Source: Escherichia phage vB_EcoM_EC001
Sequence record: MN445185.1
Length of the DNA stretch: 64,000 nt
Direction: 5' to 3' (one strand)
In this document: positions 20,055 to 35,864 of the stretch, one piece after another
How positions within the stretch are numbered: position 1 is the first letter of the stretch
Layout: every line of letters begins with the position of its first letter
The notes under the pieces: generated by a model
Databases searched by the model: none
What the model was told of the DNA's origin: nothing
What the model saw: only the letters and a program-made list of their open reading frames with translations
Made by a program: the position numbers and the translations under genes

Positions 20055-21316
20055 TACAGTAAGCCCGCTCGTTTAAGGATGAATTGGTAATCTGCCTGAT
20101 AAACATACCAGGTCAGTTTACGACGCAGGGAGTCGATGTGCGGATAGCCGTAGTAGTTGAACAGCGGTAGTAGCTGTGGTGCAATCGGCACAAGCTGGTC
20201 TTCAGCAATCGGGATAAAGTTGCCCGCTGCAACACTCCCTGGTTGCGGCATCATATCCGGGTTAAACATAGACACCGTCAAGTTGAACATCTCCATGTAC
20301 AATGGGTCATCGAAGCGCGCCCCGATGCATTGCCAGTTGAGGTTAATTGTGGTGTCGTCATTTAATTGAGGCTTGGTGTTATCGACATTCGCCATTTGAC
20401 CGGCGTTATCGTTCATCGGCCAACAAACACACGCTGTCCAGAAACGGGTAATGTTTCCGAGCGCGTCGTATTTAAACCCGTACATCCTTGACTGGTAGTC
20501 GATACGACGTTGGATGGAGTTACGCATCTTCGGTTTGAACTTACCCATTTTAATGCCGGACATATACTCCAGCCACACGCCCATCATTCGCATGATTGGG
20601 TTGCCGTATGGGTTGTTCAGCGACATCGACATGCTGTACTGGTTATTGATTTCATGTGTGGAGTCAACCATACCCCATTGTTCGCGCATTAAACCTTCTT
20701 CAGACATCCAGTTATCGACAGACTGGTCAGGCATCCCCGAGAGGCTCAGCATCTGCGTACTCAGCAATGGTATGAATGCCTGAAGATTGTCAAACATAAT
20801 GTCCTTCATGAATGGCGTGCCCAAACGGTTCTTTCTTCGCCCATCTTCCATCGGTGAATCAGAGAACCCCAATTCAAAATCTGGGTCTAACGCTGCCAGA
20901 ATGGAATAGTCGAGTGACGATTTCGGCTGAGAAGCCATGTTCGACATCTTGCGCGAGTTGGCAATGTTGTCAAAGCACAAGTTGAAGTCAGGGCGGGTAA
21001 TGAAGGTTAGGCCACCGTACTCACGGTTAACAGGCGTCGGGTTCGACGCCATCATATGGTTGAACCCCATGTAGGGGTTGGTCACACGCTGCGCAGCCAG
21101 ACCCAAACCTAACGTAAGACGGATACGGTCATTCCAACCCGATAACTCATCATTAACGTTGTACGCCGTGGTGGGTTTCGCATCGGACAGTCGACGGTCA
21201 AAGTAGTCGGCGACCGATGGTACTGCATCGATATTATTCGGGTTTTGATACGAATTGTCGTAGTCGGTATTCGGGTCATACCCCGGATCGTTCTTATCGG
21301 TCTCGTTACTCATCAT
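20054..21316 (-). CDS. hypothetical protein (420 aa)
   Basis: GGAG SD; first gene of minus-strand operon. Confidence 0.75.
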   Translation of the reverse strand: MMSNETDKNDPGYDPNTDYDNSYQNPNNIDAVPSVADYFDRRLSDAKPTTAYNVNDELSGWNDRIRLTLGLGLAAQRVTNPYMGFNHMMASNPTPVNREYGGLTFITRPDFNLCFDNIANSRKMSNMASQPKSSLDYSILAALDPDFELGFSDSPMEDGRRKNRLGTPFMKDIMFDNLQAFIPLLSTQMLSLSGMPDQSVDNWMSEEGLMREQWGMVDSTHEINNQYSMSMSLNNPYGNPIMRMMGVWLEYMSGIKMGKFKPKMRNSIQRRIDYQSRMYGFKYDALGNITRFWTACVCWPMNDNAGQMANVDNTKPQLNDDTTINLNWQCIGARFDDPLYMEMFNLTVSMFNPDMMPQPGSVAAGNFIPIAEDQLVPIAPQLLPLFNYYGYPHIDSLRRKLTWYVYQADYQFILKRAGLL

Positions 21317-21338
21317 TAACTCCGGAGTTTAGTTAAAA

Positions 21339-22457
21339 ATGGCAGAAAAAACATTTGAGACATCGCTCGTCTCCTTTCTTTCTAAGTTTCCCATGCTGCT
21401 TCGCCAGCGGGCGGAATCGACGGAAGAATTCAACTCTGTGCTGTACAACGAGCACACCACGCTGGTTGAACAAAGTCTGTTGGGCTTAGATTACCTGCCA
21501 GGTATTCTGGAGAAAATCCAAATCCTGCTCGCGGGCAACCAACTTACCGCCATCTCAATTCTGGTAGGTGTTCCTGAGGTTGATATCCTTGGTACGCTTG
21601 ACCAGGTTAGCACCCGTCGTAATGCCCTCGATGCGGCTGCACGTTCGGGTTCTCGCTTAGCGTCTTTCGCAATCGGCGAGTCCTCCCGTCACACGCTGCC
21701 GTCATACGATAAAATCGGGCTTGCGGTCGGTGAATCCCGTCGCCAGAAATCCGATAACAAAGTAGCGACTGAATCATCCGCAGGTTCTGTGCTGCCGAAC
21801 AACACGCTGAAGCTCCTGCACGATCAGGAAGGTCTGTCCAACGGTAAAGTGTTCTCTGTTACCTTCGAACGCGACGGTAATAAAGTCGAGCTGCCGATGC
21901 GTCTGCGTCTTGATGTGAAGTCTCTGCCAACCGATGAAATGAAGACGCTGATTGCGTTCAGCGATCAAACCAAAACCTTCTGGGAACGTGTGCTGCGGGC
22001 GAAGGTCGGTTCTCTCAGCTACGCGAAAGATATCGCGCTGTGTAATGACCTCATTGAAGAATACCGTAAGAACCGCTTCCGTGATAAGTCCGGTTATTAC
22101 CGTAAGATGATGGAAAAGAAAAACGCCAACTGGCTGTCTGGCCTGCTGACGCTGAGCCCATCCATCAACAACGCGTCTTCGGTTATGGTGGTTTCTCAAG
22201 AAACTATCGACGATCTGACTGCTCAGCTGGGCGGAGACTTCGATGATTACAATATCCGCCAGCGTGTGTTCAAAGACACCCTGACTGTTTACTACGTGGT
22301 TGTCGACCAGACCTGGAACCGTGTAACCATTTATACGCGTGGTCAGACCGGGTCTCAGGAACTCGACAAATCAGACTTTAGCAAGGCGAAGTCCGGTAGC
22401 GGCGATGTAAACAAAATCATCGATGCCTATCGCGTCGGCGCGAATCCGGTACTGTAA
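21339..22457 (+). CDS. hypothetical protein (372 aa)
   Basis: Long ORF diverging from the minus operon with only 22 bp between start codons. Confidence 0.7.
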   Translation: MAEKTFETSLVSFLSKFPMLLRQRAESTEEFNSVLYNEHTTLVEQSLLGLDYLPGILEKIQILLAGNQLTAISILVGVPEVDILGTLDQVSTRRNALDAAARSGSRLASFAIGESSRHTLPSYDKIGLAVGESRRQKSDNKVATESSAGSVLPNNTLKLLHDQEGLSNGKVFSVTFERDGNKVELPMRLRLDVKSLPTDEMKTLIAFSDQTKTFWERVLRAKVGSLSYAKDIALCNDLIEEYRKNRFRDKSGYYRKMMEKKNANWLSGLLTLSPSINNASSVMVVSQETIDDLTAQLGGDFDDYNIRQRVFKDTLTVYYVVVDQTWNRVTIYTRGQTGSQELDKSDFSKAKSGSGDVNKIIDAYRVGANPVL

Positions 22458-22467
22458 GGGGAAAAGA

Positions 22468-23400
22468 ATGCCGATTCCGAATATGTTGGCGATGTTGCTG
22501 CCGAGCTTCGAAGCCACCAACTTAAAAAATCAACTGTCATCTAACTGCGACTCGATTGCTGCGTTAGAGCCACAGTTCCAGAACCTCCAGGAACTGGTAG
22601 GAAGTATCCAGGGTAAGCCATTTAAAGCGAAGCCTGTTGCAGACCTTTCTACTGAAATCGTTAAGTACCTGCATAGCTCCGGTTTGGAAGTTAAAGGGTT
22701 ACGTAACGCAAGTATGCTGGAGTACGTCATCGCGTCTATGCAGAACGTACAGGCGCTGCGACCTTTCCTGGAGCAGTGTATCGACCGTGACATCGGGAAA
22801 ACGTTGGTGACATCATCTCTAACGTTCAACAAACAAACCGTGTTGCAGTTGCTGGATATGATCGAATTCTTCGTCGGTTACGCTAGCACCCTGATTAACT
22901 ACATCACGGCCGAAGAGATTGCCGCTGTACAAGACTCGAACATTGCAGTGAAGGGAATCGGTCCGAAAGACCTTCAGTATCTGCAAACCCGTAAGACGTC
23001 TTTCTGTATTGCGGTGCGCGTCCTGGCAACCCCCATTACCAAACTGAAAGCAGACTACGCTGAGATACCCGAAGCGGTGTTTGACGAAGAGACATATAGC
23101 CAATTGGTTCAGCAGTTCGGTTCGAACACCACTGACCCGCTGGGTATGTCCTCCGTTCCGTTCCCGCTGTCGATCGTCTACCGCGTGCGTCTGAATATTG
23201 CAGAATGGCAAATGGATCGTTATGACGAGTGCGTGGAAGCCGCGAAAGCGACTGAGCTGCGTATTCTGTTGTACAAGAAACAACAGGCTGCCGGTGAAGG
23301 GGACGTGCACATTGAGAAACTCATCGAAGCACACGAAAAGCGCTTGATGGAACTCAAGTACAAACGTGAACGTCTGGAGAAAAAATACGGTCTGGTCTAA
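22468..23400 (+). CDS. hypothetical protein (310 aa)
   Basis: ATG 22468 with AAGGGG SD just after upstream stop (the track start 22423 lies inside the upstream gene). Confidence 0.7.
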   Translation: MPIPNMLAMLLPSFEATNLKNQLSSNCDSIAALEPQFQNLQELVGSIQGKPFKAKPVADLSTEIVKYLHSSGLEVKGLRNASMLEYVIASMQNVQALRPFLEQCIDRDIGKTLVTSSLTFNKQTVLQLLDMIEFFVGYASTLINYITAEEIAAVQDSNIAVKGIGPKDLQYLQTRKTSFCIAVRVLATPITKLKADYAEIPEAVFDEETYSQLVQQFGSNTTDPLGMSSVPFPLSIVYRVRLNIAEWQMDRYDECVEAAKATELRILLYKKQQAAGEGDVHIEKLIEAHEKRLMELKYKRERLEKKYGLV

Positions 23401-23423
23401 GACCGTATTATCAGGAGAGTCTC

Positions 23424-23981
23424 ATGTTTGACAATGACCAGAATTTTAACCTCGCCGAGAAGTTGATTAAAAACTACATGGCGAAACTGACCCAAAACCC
23501 CGTGCTGGTTCATGACGACGAACTGATACATGAAACCCTGGAAGCTGCAGCCGTTGTGCTGCCGTATTTCCGCATGATGGGCGCTGACTCTGTCCAACAA
23601 GTATTATATGACGAATATCCGCAGGTCGGTTTTACGTTTAATACGTTTTATAACGAATCTGCATCGTTCATACTTGACGGTAAACGCCGTACAGTGTCAA
23701 CAGGACAGTGGTCCGTTCTTCTGGTATCGTACATGAACGATATCCACTCTACTAAGCAAGTAGAGCGAACCGGTTCCCTGGGCTCACGACTTCTTGCTGC
23801 GGCTTACGGTCGTAGTGGGCAAGTTCGCCGTATGGGAACTGCGCATCAGACGTACACGCCTGACCGGCGTCTATTATCTTATGCAGACCACGAACTGCTG
23901 GCACGTTGGTTGACACGTCCGAACGGGTTATCCGATATGATCTCGTCGTTAGCAGTGTTTTTAAAAATCGCACGTCCCTAA
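23424..23981 (+). CDS. hypothetical protein (185 aa)
   Basis: AGGAG SD at 23413-23417. Confidence 0.65.
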   Translation: MFDNDQNFNLAEKLIKNYMAKLTQNPVLVHDDELIHETLEAAAVVLPYFRMMGADSVQQVLYDEYPQVGFTFNTFYNESASFILDGKRRTVSTGQWSVLLVSYMNDIHSTKQVERTGSLGSRLLAAAYGRSGQVRRMGTAHQTYTPDRRLLSYADHELLARWLTRPNGLSDMISSLAVFLKIARP

Positions 23982-24037
23982 GGGGGCCCCTTATCTAGGG
24001 GCGTGTAATTGGGTTATAACCAAAGGAACCGAAACAA

Positions 24038-24082
24038 ATGGCAAACTTTGTAAAAAGTAAACTCGCCCGCGAGTCCGTTGAA
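24038..24082 (+). repeat. direct repeat, copy 1 (5' ends of the paralogous genes)
   Basis: First 29 nt identical to 25393..25421, then synonymous differences. Confidence 0.8.
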
Positions 24083-25315
24083 GCTACCGGCGACGTAATC
24101 GACGGTCTGAGCAACGTTGAACCGGCAGAAGAGAACATCGACGTTCAGCTGGCAGAAGTTGCGTCTATCGACGGTCAGCTGGAACAGCTCGATGGTGACC
24201 AGGAAACCCTGGCTGCTGATACCGAGCGTACCGAAGCTGCTATCGACGCTGCTGACGAAAAAATCGAAAACGGTGAAGAGATGCCTGAAGAAGCCATCGC
24301 TCACACCGAAGTGGCGCAGGAATCTATCCGTAAGCGTTGGGCTATCGATCGTACCAAACTGGCACGCGAATCTTATCGCCGCGGCCGTGGCATGACCAAA
24401 GCAGCTCAGGAAGGCTGGAAAGAAACCCTGAAAGATCTGTTCAAGCGCTTCGTTGAACTGTGTAAAGCAGTTATCGCGAAAGCGAAAGAGCTGAAGCTGA
24501 AATACATCAACGTTGGTAAGTCTGCACAGAAACGTGCGAAAGCTTACCAAGAGATGCTGCGTAAGCTCGGTAAGCAGAAGAAAGAAAACATCTCTGGCGG
24601 CTTTATTAGCAAACTGTCTATCGAAGGCGACTTCGATGTGGCCAACTCCATCGCTATCGCGAAAGAGCTGACCGGCGGTAAAGCGAAAGATGCTATCAAC
24701 AAGCTGTCCTCTCAGGCGGCTGACTCTGCCGTAGCGATCACCAAAACTGCAGAAGGTACTGCAACGGCTGCTAAAGGCGCCGTTGATGTTGCCCTGTTCG
24801 GTACCGCTGCTAAGAAACTGCGCACCCTGCCGCAGTTCGAAGATGGCGAAGGCGGTCAGAAAGTTCTGGCACTGCCAGGCAACGCCTATGTGCAGATCGG
24901 TAGCAAAACTCTGGCCGGCGGCCAGGAGTACACTGCGGTGGCGTTCCTGTCAACTGGCGACTCTACCGACACGAAAGAGATTGCTACCCCGGCAATTACC
25001 GCACTGGCGTCTGCAGCAACCGCTCTTGATGCGATCGGTAAAGGTTTCGAGAAAGTGCTGCAGGACTTCCGCTCCTATGACGCCGAAGTTGAGAAACTGG
25101 AGCAGGCTGCTAGCAAAGCTGCTGCTGCCCTGGATAAATCCAACGACGAAGGCGAGTGGGAAGCACTGCGTAATGCACGTACTGCAGCCGACCAGGCTGT
25201 GCGTAACTACCAGACTCTGAACCGTGCCGTGGCGCATGTTGGTAACACTGTTATCAGCGGCCTGAACGGTTACATCGGTGCTGGTATCGGCGCGTACGAA
25301 AAGTCTAAAGCTTAA
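24038..25315 (+). CDS. abundant virion protein candidate, paralog A (425 aa)
   Basis: Strong codon bias; acidic N-terminal region; repeated A-Q-E motifs; paralogous to 25393..26652. Confidence 0.8.
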   Translation: MANFVKSKLARESVEATGDVIDGLSNVEPAEENIDVQLAEVASIDGQLEQLDGDQETLAADTERTEAAIDAADEKIENGEEMPEEAIAHTEVAQESIRKRWAIDRTKLARESYRRGRGMTKAAQEGWKETLKDLFKRFVELCKAVIAKAKELKLKYINVGKSAQKRAKAYQEMLRKLGKQKKENISGGFISKLSIEGDFDVANSIAIAKELTGGKAKDAINKLSSQAADSAVAITKTAEGTATAAKGAVDVALFGTAAKKLRTLPQFEDGEGGQKVLALPGNAYVQIGSKTLAGGQEYTAVAFLSTGDSTDTKEIATPAITALASAATALDAIGKGFEKVLQDFRSYDAEVEKLEQAASKAAAALDKSNDEGEWEALRNARTAADQAVRNYQTLNRAVAHVGNTVISGLNGYIGAGIGAYEKSKA

Positions 25316-25355
25316 TCCGCTTTACGTACCAAACGTCGGTTGACAAATCATTAAT

Positions 25356-25376
25356 GGCGGTACACGGCGTACCGCC
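25356..25376 (+). other. intergenic hairpin between the paralogs (GGCGGTAC/GTACCGCC, loop ACGGC)
   Basis: Read directly; no U-tract, so not a canonical terminator. Confidence 0.5.
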
Positions 25377-25392
25377 TAGAGGATAGAAAAAG

Positions 25393-25437
25393 ATGGCAAA
25401 CTTTGTAAAAAGTAAACTCGCTCGTGAATCTGTCGAA
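25393..25437 (+). repeat. direct repeat, copy 2
   Basis: See copy 1. Confidence 0.8.
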
Positions 25438-26652
25438 GGCGCAGGCACTGTCGTTCCAGATGGTATCGAGCTGCCGGCTGAGTCCGTGGAAGGTACTCTG
25501 GCTGACATCGAGCATGACACCAAACCGATCGACCAGCTGGACGCAGAAGCAGACGTGCTGGCAGAAGACGGTGACGAAACTGATGCACAGCTGGATGCAG
25601 TTGATGCTGCTGAAGCTGCCGCTGACGGTGAAGGTGAAGATGGCGAAGAGCCAATGGAAGTGGAAGAAGATATGCCTGACGATGCTGCTGAGCAGCTGGA
25701 CGTTGCGCAGGAATCTATCCGTAAACGTTGGGCATTCGACCACCGCGTAAGCGTTGCGCAGGAATCTTACGGTGCACGTAAGCGTCGTCAGGTTGCTCGT
25801 GAAAGCCTGTGGGAAGATATCAAAGCCTTCCTGAAGCGCATCTACGAGTGGCTGAAAGAGCAGGGCCGTAAAATCAAAGATCGCTGGCTCAAGTTCAGCA
25901 ACCAGGGTAAATCCATTCAGGCGCGTGCTAAGAAATATGACGCTGCGCTGTCTGGCCTGGGCAAGCAGAAGAAAGACACCGTTTCCGGTGGCTTCATCAA
26001 GAACCTGACCTCTAACGGCAAGTTCCTGGGTGACAACCTGCAGGTGCTGAAAGAGCTGCTGGCTAACATCGGTGGCGTTTACAGCATGCAAGAAGACGTC
26101 GTTCGTGAAGCAACTGTAATGGTAACTTCTATTGAGTCTGGCAAACACGTTGGCGGTTTCGCTGCAGCGGTTAATAAAGCAGTTTCTGGTAAGTCCGGCG
26201 ATCTGCAGCTGCTGGGCAACCAGATCGGTAAAGCTGACGTTAAAGTCAACGGTGACGACCTGGAAGCATCCTTCACTGTTATCGATGCAGAAGGCAGCGT
26301 AGAGCAGTCCGTAGCGACTCCTTCTCTGACCACCCTGAGTGGTCTGGTGGCGTTCTTCAATCAGCTGGGTAAAGCTGTGGAAGAAAACGTGAAAGCGTAC
26401 CACAAGAACAACCAGGCGCAAGAGAAGTACGAGCAGGCTATTGACAAGCTGCTGAAGCGTATCGACAGCGTGAAGATCGACGACAACGCCGAGCTGACCA
26501 ACAACGTACGTGTTGCTCGCCGTGCTATCACCATCGCGAACCAGTTCGTTTCCTGGACCGAACGTTGCGTTGCAACTGGCCAGAAAAACCTGATCGCCGG
26601 TGTTAACGGCTACATCAGCGCCGGTATCGGTGCTTATGAAAAGGCTAAGTAA
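25393..26652 (+). CDS. abundant virion protein candidate, paralog B (419 aa)
   Basis: Same N-terminus MANFVKSKLARESVE, shared VAQESIRKRW and C-terminal GYIxAGIGAYEK; AGAGGA SD. Confidence 0.8.
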   Translation: MANFVKSKLARESVEGAGTVVPDGIELPAESVEGTLADIEHDTKPIDQLDAEADVLAEDGDETDAQLDAVDAAEAAADGEGEDGEEPMEVEEDMPDDAAEQLDVAQESIRKRWAFDHRVSVAQESYGARKRRQVARESLWEDIKAFLKRIYEWLKEQGRKIKDRWLKFSNQGKSIQARAKKYDAALSGLGKQKKDTVSGGFIKNLTSNGKFLGDNLQVLKELLANIGGVYSMQEDVVREATVMVTSIESGKHVGGFAAAVNKAVSGKSGDLQLLGNQIGKADVKVNGDDLEASFTVIDAEGSVEQSVATPSLTTLSGLVAFFNQLGKAVEENVKAYHKNNQAQEKYEQAIDKLLKRIDSVKIDDNAELTNNVRVARRAITIANQFVSWTERCVATGQKNLIAGVNGYISAGIGAYEKAK

Positions 26653-26663
26653 TTAGTCTGGCG

Positions 26664-26703
26664 AATCCCCCACTTCGGTGGGGGATTTACCCTTTCTTTT
26701 TTT
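26664..26703 (+). terminator. rho-independent terminator
   Basis: AATCCCCCAC-TTCG-GTGGGGGATT hairpin, T-run after a 5-nt gap. Confidence 0.65.
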
Positions 26704-26720
26704 GTCTCGGATTAGAAAAG

Positions 26721-26746
26721 ATTTCAGATATATATTACCTAGGTGA
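26721..26746 (+). promoter_or_regulatory. phage promoter-like motif, class I (ATTTCAGATATATATTACCTAGGTGA)
   Basis: 26/26 identical to 35839..35864; just downstream of a terminator, 43 nt before ATG 26789. Confidence 0.6.
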
Positions 26747-26788
26747 GATTGCATTGGTAATCTTTTAACCGACTATCACTTAAGGAAT

Positions 26789-27550
26789 ATGAAAATGAAA
26801 ACTATCAATCTGCTCACTCTGGCTAATGGCTCTATCGAACGTAACGAAGACGACGGTGCTATCCTGCAAGCAACCAACGGCTTTAAAGTTATACTGTCCC
26901 CAATTCAATTCACAGGCTTACAAGTCTGGCTGCGCGAAATCAACAAACGCAAACTGCCGCGTCGTATGGCGGTTGGCGACCTGCTCTTTACACTGGATAA
27001 CGTTGACGGTGTTAAACCGGAACTGTACGAAGTTCAGTACAAAGCCGCAGTCGATACACTGCGACTGAAGAAAGGGGAAGAAATCAAATTCATTCCGGTG
27101 ACCTATAATGGTAACACTTACCTGCAGATGGAAGACACTCCGTTCGCTGCGCACGTCACTGACACTGCTGTTGAACTGGTCATTGCCATTGGTCTGGTTG
27201 CGACTCCGGCGGTACTGGAAGTCAGCGAAGATCCACTGCAGGATTTCGGTACGCTGTTCGAAACCATACTGGGTGGCACGAAGCTCGGGAACATCACCAA
27301 GGTCATCCGCCGTATTCCGATTCGGAATGCGCAGCCGAAAGTGATGACGCTGGCAGAAAGCATGACGGAACACCCGGAGCTGACTGCTGAAGAAATTCAG
27401 GCGCAAGAAGAAGCAATTGAAGAAGAACGTCAGAACGCCCAGCGTGAAGCCATGAAGCCGTTCCGTGGTTTCCTGGATGCTATCTTCGACTGTGCGAACT
27501 CGCTGATGAAACCGGTTGAAGTGAAAACCGCTGAAGAACCAGCAGCGTAA
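26789..27550 (+). CDS. hypothetical protein (253 aa)
   Basis: First gene after the promoter motif; TAAGGAA SD. Confidence 0.7.
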   Translation: MKMKTINLLTLANGSIERNEDDGAILQATNGFKVILSPIQFTGLQVWLREINKRKLPRRMAVGDLLFTLDNVDGVKPELYEVQYKAAVDTLRLKKGEEIKFIPVTYNGNTYLQMEDTPFAAHVTDTAVELVIAIGLVATPAVLEVSEDPLQDFGTLFETILGGTKLGNITKVIRRIPIRNAQPKVMTLAESMTEHPELTAEEIQAQEEAIEEERQNAQREAMKPFRGFLDAIFDCANSLMKPVEVKTAEEPAA

Positions 27551-35838: not shown

Positions 35839-35864
35839 ATTTCAGATATATATTACCTAGGTGA
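35839..35864 (+). promoter_or_regulatory. phage promoter-like motif, class I (ATTTCAGATATATATTACCTAGGTGA)
   Basis: Identical to 26721..26746; 52 nt upstream of ATG 35916. Confidence 0.6.

Follow-up and report, generated by a model that had tools for sequence, protein, structure and literature searches.

Our analysis identifies two tandem genes of Escherichia phage vB_EcoM_EC001 (record MN445185.1) as very probable orthologs of gp53 and gp54 of the Salmonella jumbo phage SPN3US, which are abundant internal head proteins processed by proteolysis after A-x-E. Gene 1 (24038..25315, plus strand, 425 aa) and gene 2 (25393..26652, plus strand, 419 aa) lie in a stretch of 64 kb (64,000 nt), referred to below as the window. 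This identification gives the best overall explanation of the data, and nothing was found that contradicts it. The 25 kb surrounding the pair is 97.3% identical to SPN3US at the DNA level, with flanking genes and gene order unchanged, while the pair itself shows 90-93% DNA identity to the SPN3US-like Salmonella jumbo phages (genus Seoulvirus), and it is from this combination of DNA identity and SPN3US gene order that the orthology follows. At the amino acid level the whole proteins are 96% (gene 1 versus gp53) and 87% (gene 2 versus gp54) identical, with almost complete conservation of the N-terminal propeptides (100% and 99%, respectively) and lower identity of the mature parts (94% and 81%). 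The likeness to SPN3US extends to the locus, the gene order, the lengths of 425 and 419 aa, the N-terminal 15 residues, the five mapped cleavage sites, the masses of propeptide and mature protein, the intergenic hairpin and the terminator, and the difference is that the mature-coding parts represent other alleles, of JN03/SPFM type (94% aa) in gene 1 and with 81% identity in gene 2. Both proteins also match the phiKZ internal head protein family PF12699 (phiKZ_IP), an assignment to internal head or ejection proteins, with 260.0 bits for gene 1 and 184.3 bits for gene 2 (gathering cut-off 27; positions 2-387 of 387 of the hidden Markov model), as well as PHROG 2497, 'internal head protein', with E values of 5e-151 and 3e-133, respectively.

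An earlier note made from the sequence alone had described the region 24038-26652 as two tandem paralogs with an acidic N-terminal region, strongly biased codon usage and a set of shared features (an identical 29-nt 5' end, the N-terminus MANFVKSKLARESVE, and the peptides VAQESIRKRW and GYIxAGIGAYEK), and had proposed that they may be processed head or inner-body proteins. All of this was borne out. The open reading frames (ORFs) lie at these coordinates, their products share 35% identity over the full length (E 6e-58), and MANFVKSKLARESVE, VAQESIRKRW, GYIxAGIGAYEK and the 29-nt tract are common to both; no third paralog was found within the window. Both genes belong to the PF12699 family of phiKZ internal head proteins, and the status of their SPN3US orthologs as processed head proteins has been shown by virion mass spectrometry, by in vitro cleavage with the prohead protease gp245 and by protease mutants. 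The tandem pair, an ancient duplicate of a PF12699 protein, has been retained by enterobacterial jumbo phages of at least five genera (Seoulvirus, Erskinevirus, Machinavirus, Wellingtonvirus and Derbicusvirus), and it occurs in metagenomic relatives as well.

The codon usage of the two genes is in line with the abundance of their SPN3US counterparts. Calculated against the 58 ORFs of the window, the pair ranks second and third in codon bias, behind only a 766-aa ORF encoding the major head (capsid) protein. The effective number of codons, with a median of 49.9 over the window, is 35.9 in gene 1 and 36.9 in gene 2, optimal codons of the E. coli type make up a fraction of 0.81 and 0.80, respectively (median 0.54), and CTG accounts for 90% of the leucine codons in the pair versus 38% elsewhere. 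Such a strong bias is consistent with a high output from both genes and a high copy number in the virion. In SPN3US, gp53 and gp54 have been described as 'paralog family A', both with similarity to pfam12699, and their abundance by spectral counts (SC/M 21.0 and 20.2, respectively) was close to that of the major capsid protein (22.6), corresponding to an estimated number of more than 600 copies of each per capsid (PMC5694885). The identity of their N-terminal 15 residues was noted in the same study and likened to the capsid-targeting sequences of T4 (PMC5694885). The gene pair, its abundance, the paralogy, the identical N-termini and the A-x-E processing are thus already known from SPN3US, and since these publications cover the pair, the finding chiefly shows that the earlier note had read the sequence correctly. 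Covariation of the intergenic hairpin and gene conversion of the 5' ends, both discussed below, were not found described in the literature and represent modest additions that leave the classification unchanged.

The proteolytic processing of the pair can be followed site by site. The tripeptide A-Q-E occurs twice in gene 1 and three times in gene 2, and when A[QR]E is counted, both proteins exceed the expectation from protein shuffles (4 versus 0.57 in gene 1, P = 0.003; 5 versus 0.43 in gene 2, P <0.0002), with eight of these nine tripeptides falling in the N-terminal third. In SPN3US, cuts by gp245 have been mapped by mass spectrometry at ARE-12, AQE-95 and AQE-125 of gp53 and at AQE-124 and ARE-137 of gp54 (PMC10052503 Table 2), the motif being A-x-E with a preference for Val at P4 and Ser at P1' (PMC10052503). 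Moreover, gp53 is cut in vitro by recombinant gp245, and the propeptides stay intact in protease mutants (PMC7411985). All five mapped sites occupy identical residue numbers in vB_EcoM_EC001, in the contexts LARE12|S, VAQE95|S and AAQE125|GWKETLKDLFKR (with G at P1') in gene 1 and VAQE124|S and VARE137|SLWEDIK in gene 2. In full, the A-x-E sites on the plus strand are E12 (24071-24073), E95 (24320-24322), E111 (24368-24370) and E125 (24410-24412) in gene 1, and E12 (25426-25428), E107 (25711-25713), E124 (25762-25764) and E137 (25801-25803) in gene 2. Across genera, in 22 homologs with identities as low as 43%, these residues show little or no variation. When both paralogs from 12 phages were aligned, the maturation sites 125 and 137 shared one column and ARE-111 of gene 1 aligned with AQE-124 of gene 2, and therefore the paralogs have four homologous A-x-E positions (12/12, 95/107, 111/124 and 125/137). 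By this alignment the published cleavage evidence, combined across both proteins, covers all four.

Cleavage at the last of these positions defines a propeptide of residues 1-125 in gene 1 (24038-24412, plus strand; mature protein 126-425) and of residues 1-137 in gene 2 (25393-25803, plus strand; mature protein 138-419). The predicted fragment masses of 13.7 and 31.5 kDa for gene 1 and of 14.8 and 30.7 kDa for gene 2 agree with those published for gp53 (13.8 and 31.5 kDa) and gp54 (14.8 and 30.3 kDa). The propeptides have isoelectric points (pI) of 4.4 and 4.1 and net charges of -15 and -26 in genes 1 and 2, respectively, which accounts for the acidic N-terminal region in the earlier note, and their central fragments are still more acidic (-24 and -34). 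The mature parts of about 31 kDa are basic, with a pI of 9.3 and a net charge of +8, and consequently proteolysis turns an acidic precursor into a basic protein. Cleavage is thus predicted to free an acidic propeptide (~14-15 kDa, pI ~4.2) from a basic helical C-terminal body (~31 kDa). The earlier note had suggested an S/A/G-x-E motif of phiKZ-like prohead proteases. The part of this proposal that holds is cleavage after Glu, which is shown in the SPN3US orthologs at sites that are kept here, while the motif itself is narrower: in this clade it is A-x-E (Val at P4, Ser at P1') rather than S/A/G-x-E. Four more orthologs of gp245 substrates encoded in the window keep their sites as well, namely a gp45-like protein (ASE-20), a gp47-like protein (ALE-111), a gp50-like protein (KVATE|S) and the major capsid protein (PLVATE-130|YYTN). 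The SPN3US gene number gp245 suggests that the protease gene itself likely lies far outside the window.

A side observation concerns the gp50-like protein (21339-22457), in which KVATE-145|SSAG is the sole A-x-E site. For SPN3US gp50 the published table lists 'ATE-127' together with a propeptide of 15.8 kDa, a mass that fits about 145 residues (PMC10052503 Table 2), and the annotated SPN3US gp50 ORF is of equal length (372 aa). The entry 'ATE-127' therefore looks like a numbering discrepancy.

Taken together with the work on SPN3US and phiKZ, these features outline a possible course of events in the head. As shown in SPN3US, the pair would be made late and in very large amounts, with more than 600 copies of each protein per capsid, and both proteins would enter the prohead, where they would be the main constituents of an inner T=1 shell. 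The serine protease gp245 of the prohead would then cut after Ala-x-Glu and detach the acidic propeptide, and the basic bodies may remain with the packaged DNA and be ejected into the host together with the genome, a fate they would share with phiKZ gp93, gp95 and gp97 and with Goslar gp58, whose injection accompanies that of the DNA. In phiKZ, the helix-rich domain of gp93 is released, and residues 14-84, which start at the first cleavage site, remain as cement bound to the inner face of the capsid. By analogy, the propeptide segment from residue 13 to about residue 95 (gene 1) or 107 (gene 2) may likewise stay on the capsid's inner surface, and the unusual persistence of gp53-propeptide peptides in SPN3US heads (PMC10052503) would fit such a retained cement fragment. 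Several points weigh against this scheme. The literature still describes the role of the PF12699 proteins, the most abundant proteins in jumbo-phage heads apart from those of the shell, as 'a key unsolved mystery'; deletion of phiKZ gp93 causes no growth defect; injection is not seen for phiKZ gp162; and the propeptide gave no sequence match to the capsid-bound gp93 and gp162 fragments of phiKZ in the PDB. Given the unsolved role of the family, the dispensability of gp93 and the fact that gp162 is not injected, ejection of gp53 and gp54 is supported by analogy only, and for the SPN3US proteins it is an assumption.

In a different view of the pair, the proteins would act mainly as a scaffold or core, building a T=1 inner shell that directs how the T=27 prohead assembles, and the mature fragments would be leftovers on the DNA and not host effectors. 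In the 'mottled' capsids of protease-deficient SPN3US, uncleaved gp53 and gp54 make up most of the T=1 inner shell, which is remodeled on maturation (PMC7552025), following proteolysis and packaging, and in a gp243 mutant the lost incorporation of gp53 and gp54 makes the heads unstable. The propeptide is moreover the best conserved part of these proteins, both between orthologs and between paralogs, which is what a scaffold might show; its resemblance to the scaffolding delta domain of the HK97 capsid is non-significant (E 1.8) and only a curiosity. However, in contrast to classical scaffolds, the mature parts stay in the virion, each with more than 600 copies, and the PF12699 homologs of phiKZ and Goslar are visibly injected into cells. 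We consider a mainly scaffolding function possible but somewhat doubtful, and a scaffold role and a host-delivery role are not mutually exclusive.

The pair can also be set beside known systems. With phiKZ gp93, gp95, gp97 and gp162 (and also gp92, 94, 96 and 163) and with Goslar gp53-gp58 it shares the PF12699 family, a helix-rich predicted fold, a high copy number in the head, clustering of paralogs, and N-terminal processing after x-E by a prohead protease of the S80 family (gp245 is of MEROPS S80 type), with a first cut near residue 12-13. In contrast to the six to eight paralogs of those phages there are only two here, the similarity is confined to the profile level, the motif is limited to A-x-E, SPN3US has no visible cylindrical inner body, and injection and capsid-cement roles are shown for the phiKZ and Goslar proteins only. 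The internal proteins IPI-III of T4 resemble the pair in mechanism, not in family: they are abundant basic proteins packaged with the DNA, they carry a short conserved N-terminal peptide that is removed after Glu by the prohead protease (gp21 in T4), and their ejection into the host would be a further parallel. The propeptides of vB_EcoM_EC001 are much longer (125-137 aa) and acidic, and the proteins are larger and far more abundant. Homology to the T4 internal proteins was not found, as only internal head families of the phiKZ type match in Pfam and PHROG.

An AlphaFold2 model of gene 2 (predicted local distance difference test, pLDDT, 76; predicted template-modeling score, pTM, 0.73) consists of long helices with a small beta insertion. 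The N-terminus is disordered and the propeptide segments are helical; E124 falls within a low-confidence linker, and the maturation site is close to where the mature domain begins its first long helix. This domain comprises four long helices and a beta insertion that falls in the hypervariable region. A search of BFVD with this model returned 103 matches at E<=1e-3, and the named ones among the top 50 are jumbo-phage internal or virion proteins or uncharacterized phage proteins. Sequence searches for solved structures gave no significant match, whether made with the proteins, with the profile of the family or with only the propeptide. Among the top 50 Foldseek matches in the PDB, most are toxins of the ClyA family (SmhB, AhlB, MakA/B/E, NheA, Hbl and ClyA), and membrane and lipid proteins of the host co-purify with injected gp93 of phiKZ, so that one could picture the mature domain as a ClyA-like alpha pore-forming or membrane-remodeling protein that builds the early-infection vesicle. 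We regard this as very improbable and largely refuted: all of the ClyA-family matches are non-significant (E >=0.09, probability <=0.33, TM score ~0.1-0.25), neither protein has a hydrophobic segment (maximum Kyte-Doolittle value in a 19-aa window 1.45 and 1.06), and the predicted beta-hairpin, which falls in the hypervariable region, is charged. Neither the structural similarity nor the hydrophobic beta-tongue or head of such pore formers was thus found.

Besides the coding features, the pair has two peculiarities that concern its expression. One of them is the 29-nt tract ATGGCAAACTTTGTAAAAAGTAAACTCGC at the 5' ends of both genes (24038-24066 and 25393-25421, plus strand), which encodes MANFVKSKL(A) within the N-terminal peptide released at ARE-12. 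Within many lineages the first 24-27 nt of the two paralogs are identical at 26-27 of 27 positions (or 23 of 24), while the tract itself differs between lineages, occurring in a VKSKL version, in an AQRKI version or with codon 2 lost in both paralogs. Such concerted tracts were also found in the loci L003, L004, L011, L019, L021, L032 and L033. Codons 10-15, in comparison, encode the same ARES[VI]E in both paralogs with synonymous differences (12-15 of 18 nt identical). In the contig L019 the start of gene 2 equals that of gene 1 at 45 of 45 nt, versus 30 of 45 in its sisters L016 and L020, and by this comparison gene 2 appears to have been freshly converted, its start overwritten by that of gene 1. 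The identity within lineages, the differences between them and the case of L019 thus point to recurrent gene conversion of the translation-start and N-terminal-peptide region, and indicate that conversion between the paralogs keeps their 5' ends identical.

Independent purifying selection on a targeting peptide, on translation initiation or on both could in principle also maintain identical starts. The first 12-15 residues are functionally important, as they carry ARE-12 and have been compared with the T4 capsid-targeting sequences, A/U-rich starts favor translation initiation, and the AQRKI version is common to distant lineages. Nevertheless, this explanation is unlikely in view of the near-complete nucleotide identity of codons 1-9 (26-27 of 27 nt in many lineages) next to the synonymous variation in codons 10-15, of the lineage-specific versions of the tract, including the loss of codon 2 in both paralogs, and of the 45/45-nt identity in L019 compared to 30/45 in L016 and L020.

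The second peculiarity is the stem-loop GGCGGTAC-acggc-GTACCGCC at 25356..25376 (plus strand), where the earlier note had placed a hairpin between the genes. It has an 8-bp stem in which six of the eight pairs are G-C, a 5-nt loop and a folding energy of -15.1 kcal/mol; the conserved TCATTAA (25348-25354) precedes it, and the invariant Shine-Dalgarno (SD) sequence AGAGGA (25378-25383) starts after a single nucleotide. A stem-loop of 7-10 bp (-12.6 to -19.1 kcal/mol) was obtained by independent folding in all 20 distinct intergenic sequences from relatives, in each case ending 0-1 nt before AGAGGA, and over these 20 relatives its pairs comprise 162 Watson-Crick pairs, 7 G-U pairs and no mismatches. 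In a model-based alignment, which is fitted to the structure and with which the independent folds agree, six of the eight pairs change on both sides, 91% of the cells pair compared to 42-62% when the partners are slid, and the covariation score is reached by none of 500 shuffles. The hairpin is present at exactly the coordinates of the earlier note and covaries. A strand test based on G-U versus A-C wobbles weakly favors the sense strand, and the plus strand is the more stable one in 12 of the 20 sequences, which is not decisive. A covariance model search with filters off found only one copy in the 64 kb, by which a repeated regulatory element is rejected. The second-best match (21305-21341; 16.4 bits, E 1.1), some 20 nt upstream of where the gp50-like gene starts, has only ATCATTAA in common with the hairpin. 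With 21 copies of the flanking TCATTRA motif in the window, where 18.5 are expected, there is no enrichment, so that this match is probably due to chance. A scan of 23300-27300 against Rfam gave no family for the hairpin, with only sub-threshold matches over the terminator.

With regard to function, the earlier note had proposed that this hairpin tunes the ratio of the two products, which would make it a transcriptional attenuator, or partial terminator, reducing the output of gene 2 compared to that of gene 1. A GC-rich 8-bp stem-loop conserved with covariation between two genes is compatible with such a role, and the multisubunit RNA polymerases of the phage are non-canonical, with termination signals that are not fully known. 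However, the hairpin is followed by TAGAGGATAGAAAAAG, without a U-tract directly 3' of it, and is not called by the terminator scan; no U-tract follows the stem in any of the 20 lineages, while the genuine terminator after gene 2 has one in all of them; the fixed spacing of 0-1 nt to the SD sequence is not needed for a terminator; and SPN3US virions contain about equal amounts of gp53 and gp54 (SC/M 21.0 versus 20.2). The lack of a U-tract in every lineage and the equimolar proteins make an ordinary attenuator unlikely, and we rate this explanation as quite improbable; the proposed tuning of the ratio is not supported in this form. Modeling likewise lends no support to a simple opening of the ribosome-binding site (RBS) by the hairpin: in partition-function calculations over 18 lineages, the probability that the RBS is unpaired hardly changed between the wild type (0.55) and sequences in which the hairpin was disrupted (0.53) or deleted (0.50).

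We therefore consider that the stem-loop may rather be an RNA element acting on the stability of the gene-2 mRNA or on initiation, for example by forming a hairpin that protects the 5' end of a transcript which is either processed or initiated internally. Stem-loops that govern the stability of mRNA segments or their output are found in the puf operon of Rhodobacter, in papBA of E. coli and in the leader of T7 gene 10. The hairpin would resemble these in being a stable U-tract-free stem-loop located before a strong SD sequence in an operon of highly expressed structural genes, and differs from them in having no sequence relation to them and no Rfam family match. Rather tentatively, and as a suggestion that we would not call likely, the hairpin and the gene-converted first 24-29 coding nucleotides may together form an 'expression-matching' module by which diverged paralogs would be produced at about 1:1 with the same cleavable N-terminal targeting peptide, for co-assembly into the inner shell of the prohead. 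If true, this would represent a stoichiometry control based on cis-RNA and recombination that has not yet been described for jumbo-phage head genes. The four homologous cleavage sites, the acidic-to-basic charge switch, and the covarying stem-loop at the gene-2 RBS together with 5' gene conversion provide experimental handles on how the pair is made, targeted and balanced.

The mature domains of the pair, in contrast to their surroundings, have a mosaic origin. The window is 97-100% identical to SPN3US except in the mature-coding parts of both genes, where identity falls to a minimum of 65%, with divergence hot spots at 24431-25230 in gene 1 and 25831-26630 in gene 2. In these parts the synonymous divergence (dS) is 0.36-1.1 compared to 0.02-0.05 in the flanking genes, while the ratio of nonsynonymous to synonymous divergence (dN/dS) is 0.09-0.23, and a dS 10-40 times that of the flanks at such a low dN/dS identifies the mature parts as imported recombinant alleles. 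Positive selection was rejected as the cause of the divergence on the same grounds, as the dN/dS values are low and the high dS points to recombination. Gene 1 is 99.8% identical in DNA to phage JN03 and thus carries an allele of the JN03/SPFM type. For the mature part of gene 2 no match above 82% was found among 50,697 phage records, and the closest protein (P0001, 98% identical) comes from an assembly of Salmonella Enteritidis. The alleles of the two genes reassort independently of each other, which may argue, weakly, against a tight co-adaptation of their mature domains. As a separate observation, gp54 homologs of about 60% identity (P0010-P0065) are located on contigs of ~220-227 kb in assemblies of dozens of Salmonella, E. 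coli and Shigella isolates. These contigs look like a distinct jumbo-phage lineage, to which the loci L016-L020 belong and which is commonly co-sequenced with enterobacterial isolates.

The two genes are framed by elements that set them apart from their neighbors. Upstream of gene 1, a near-invariant 60-nt element (23971..24030, plus strand) covers both the leader of gene 1 and the stop codon of the gene before it. It contains a 9-bp hairpin without a U-tract, formed by CACGTCCCT (23971-23979) and AGGGGCGTG (23997-24005), the palindrome GGTTATAACC (24012-24021) and an SD-like AAGGAA, occurs only once in the window and is almost identical in 11 phages of five genera whose proteins share only 55-70% identity. 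This region may be a candidate late promoter or leader. Neither upstream region contains TATG, the late-promoter motif of phiKZ, and for this clade there is no consensus of late promoters. Downstream of gene 2, an intrinsic terminator, GAATCCCCCAC-ttcg-GTGGGGGATTT followed by a T-rich run (26663..26706, plus strand; z = -3.2), closes the unit, and its UUCG loop and compensatory stem changes were present in all relatives examined. It is followed by the early-promoter-like TTTCAGATATATATTACCTAGGTGA (26722..26746, plus strand), which is conserved in all relatives and marks where a new transcription unit, distinct from the pair, begins. It agrees with the consensus predicted for early promoters (those of the virion RNA polymerase) in phiKZ-related phages (PMC7058600); TATATTAC occurs only twice in the window, the second time at 35849-35856. 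By these boundaries the pair forms what appears to be a discrete two-gene unit, which is presumably late, given the production profile of its orthologs, while the early-promoter match implies that the next ORF (26789..27550) is probably an early gene amid late structural genes.

Further upstream, another stem-loop, AATACGGTCT-ggtcta-AGACCGTATT (23384-23409), overlaps the stop codon of the ORF at 22423..23400 and ends 3 nt before the SD sequence (AGGAG) of the ORF starting at 23424. It has no U-tract on the sense strand; the terminator scan calls a minus-strand terminator at this position, and the greedy gene-like set contains no long minus-strand ORF there. This stem-loop is not conserved in all genera, and the intergenic gap varies or the genes overlap. 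Finally, the ORF directly upstream of gene 1 (23424-23981, 185 aa) matches PF25618, 'PhiKZ vertex-binding protein gp91', with 30.2 bits (cut-off 27), and the capsid-interior vertex complex of phiKZ therefore probably has a counterpart encoded beside the internal head protein genes.

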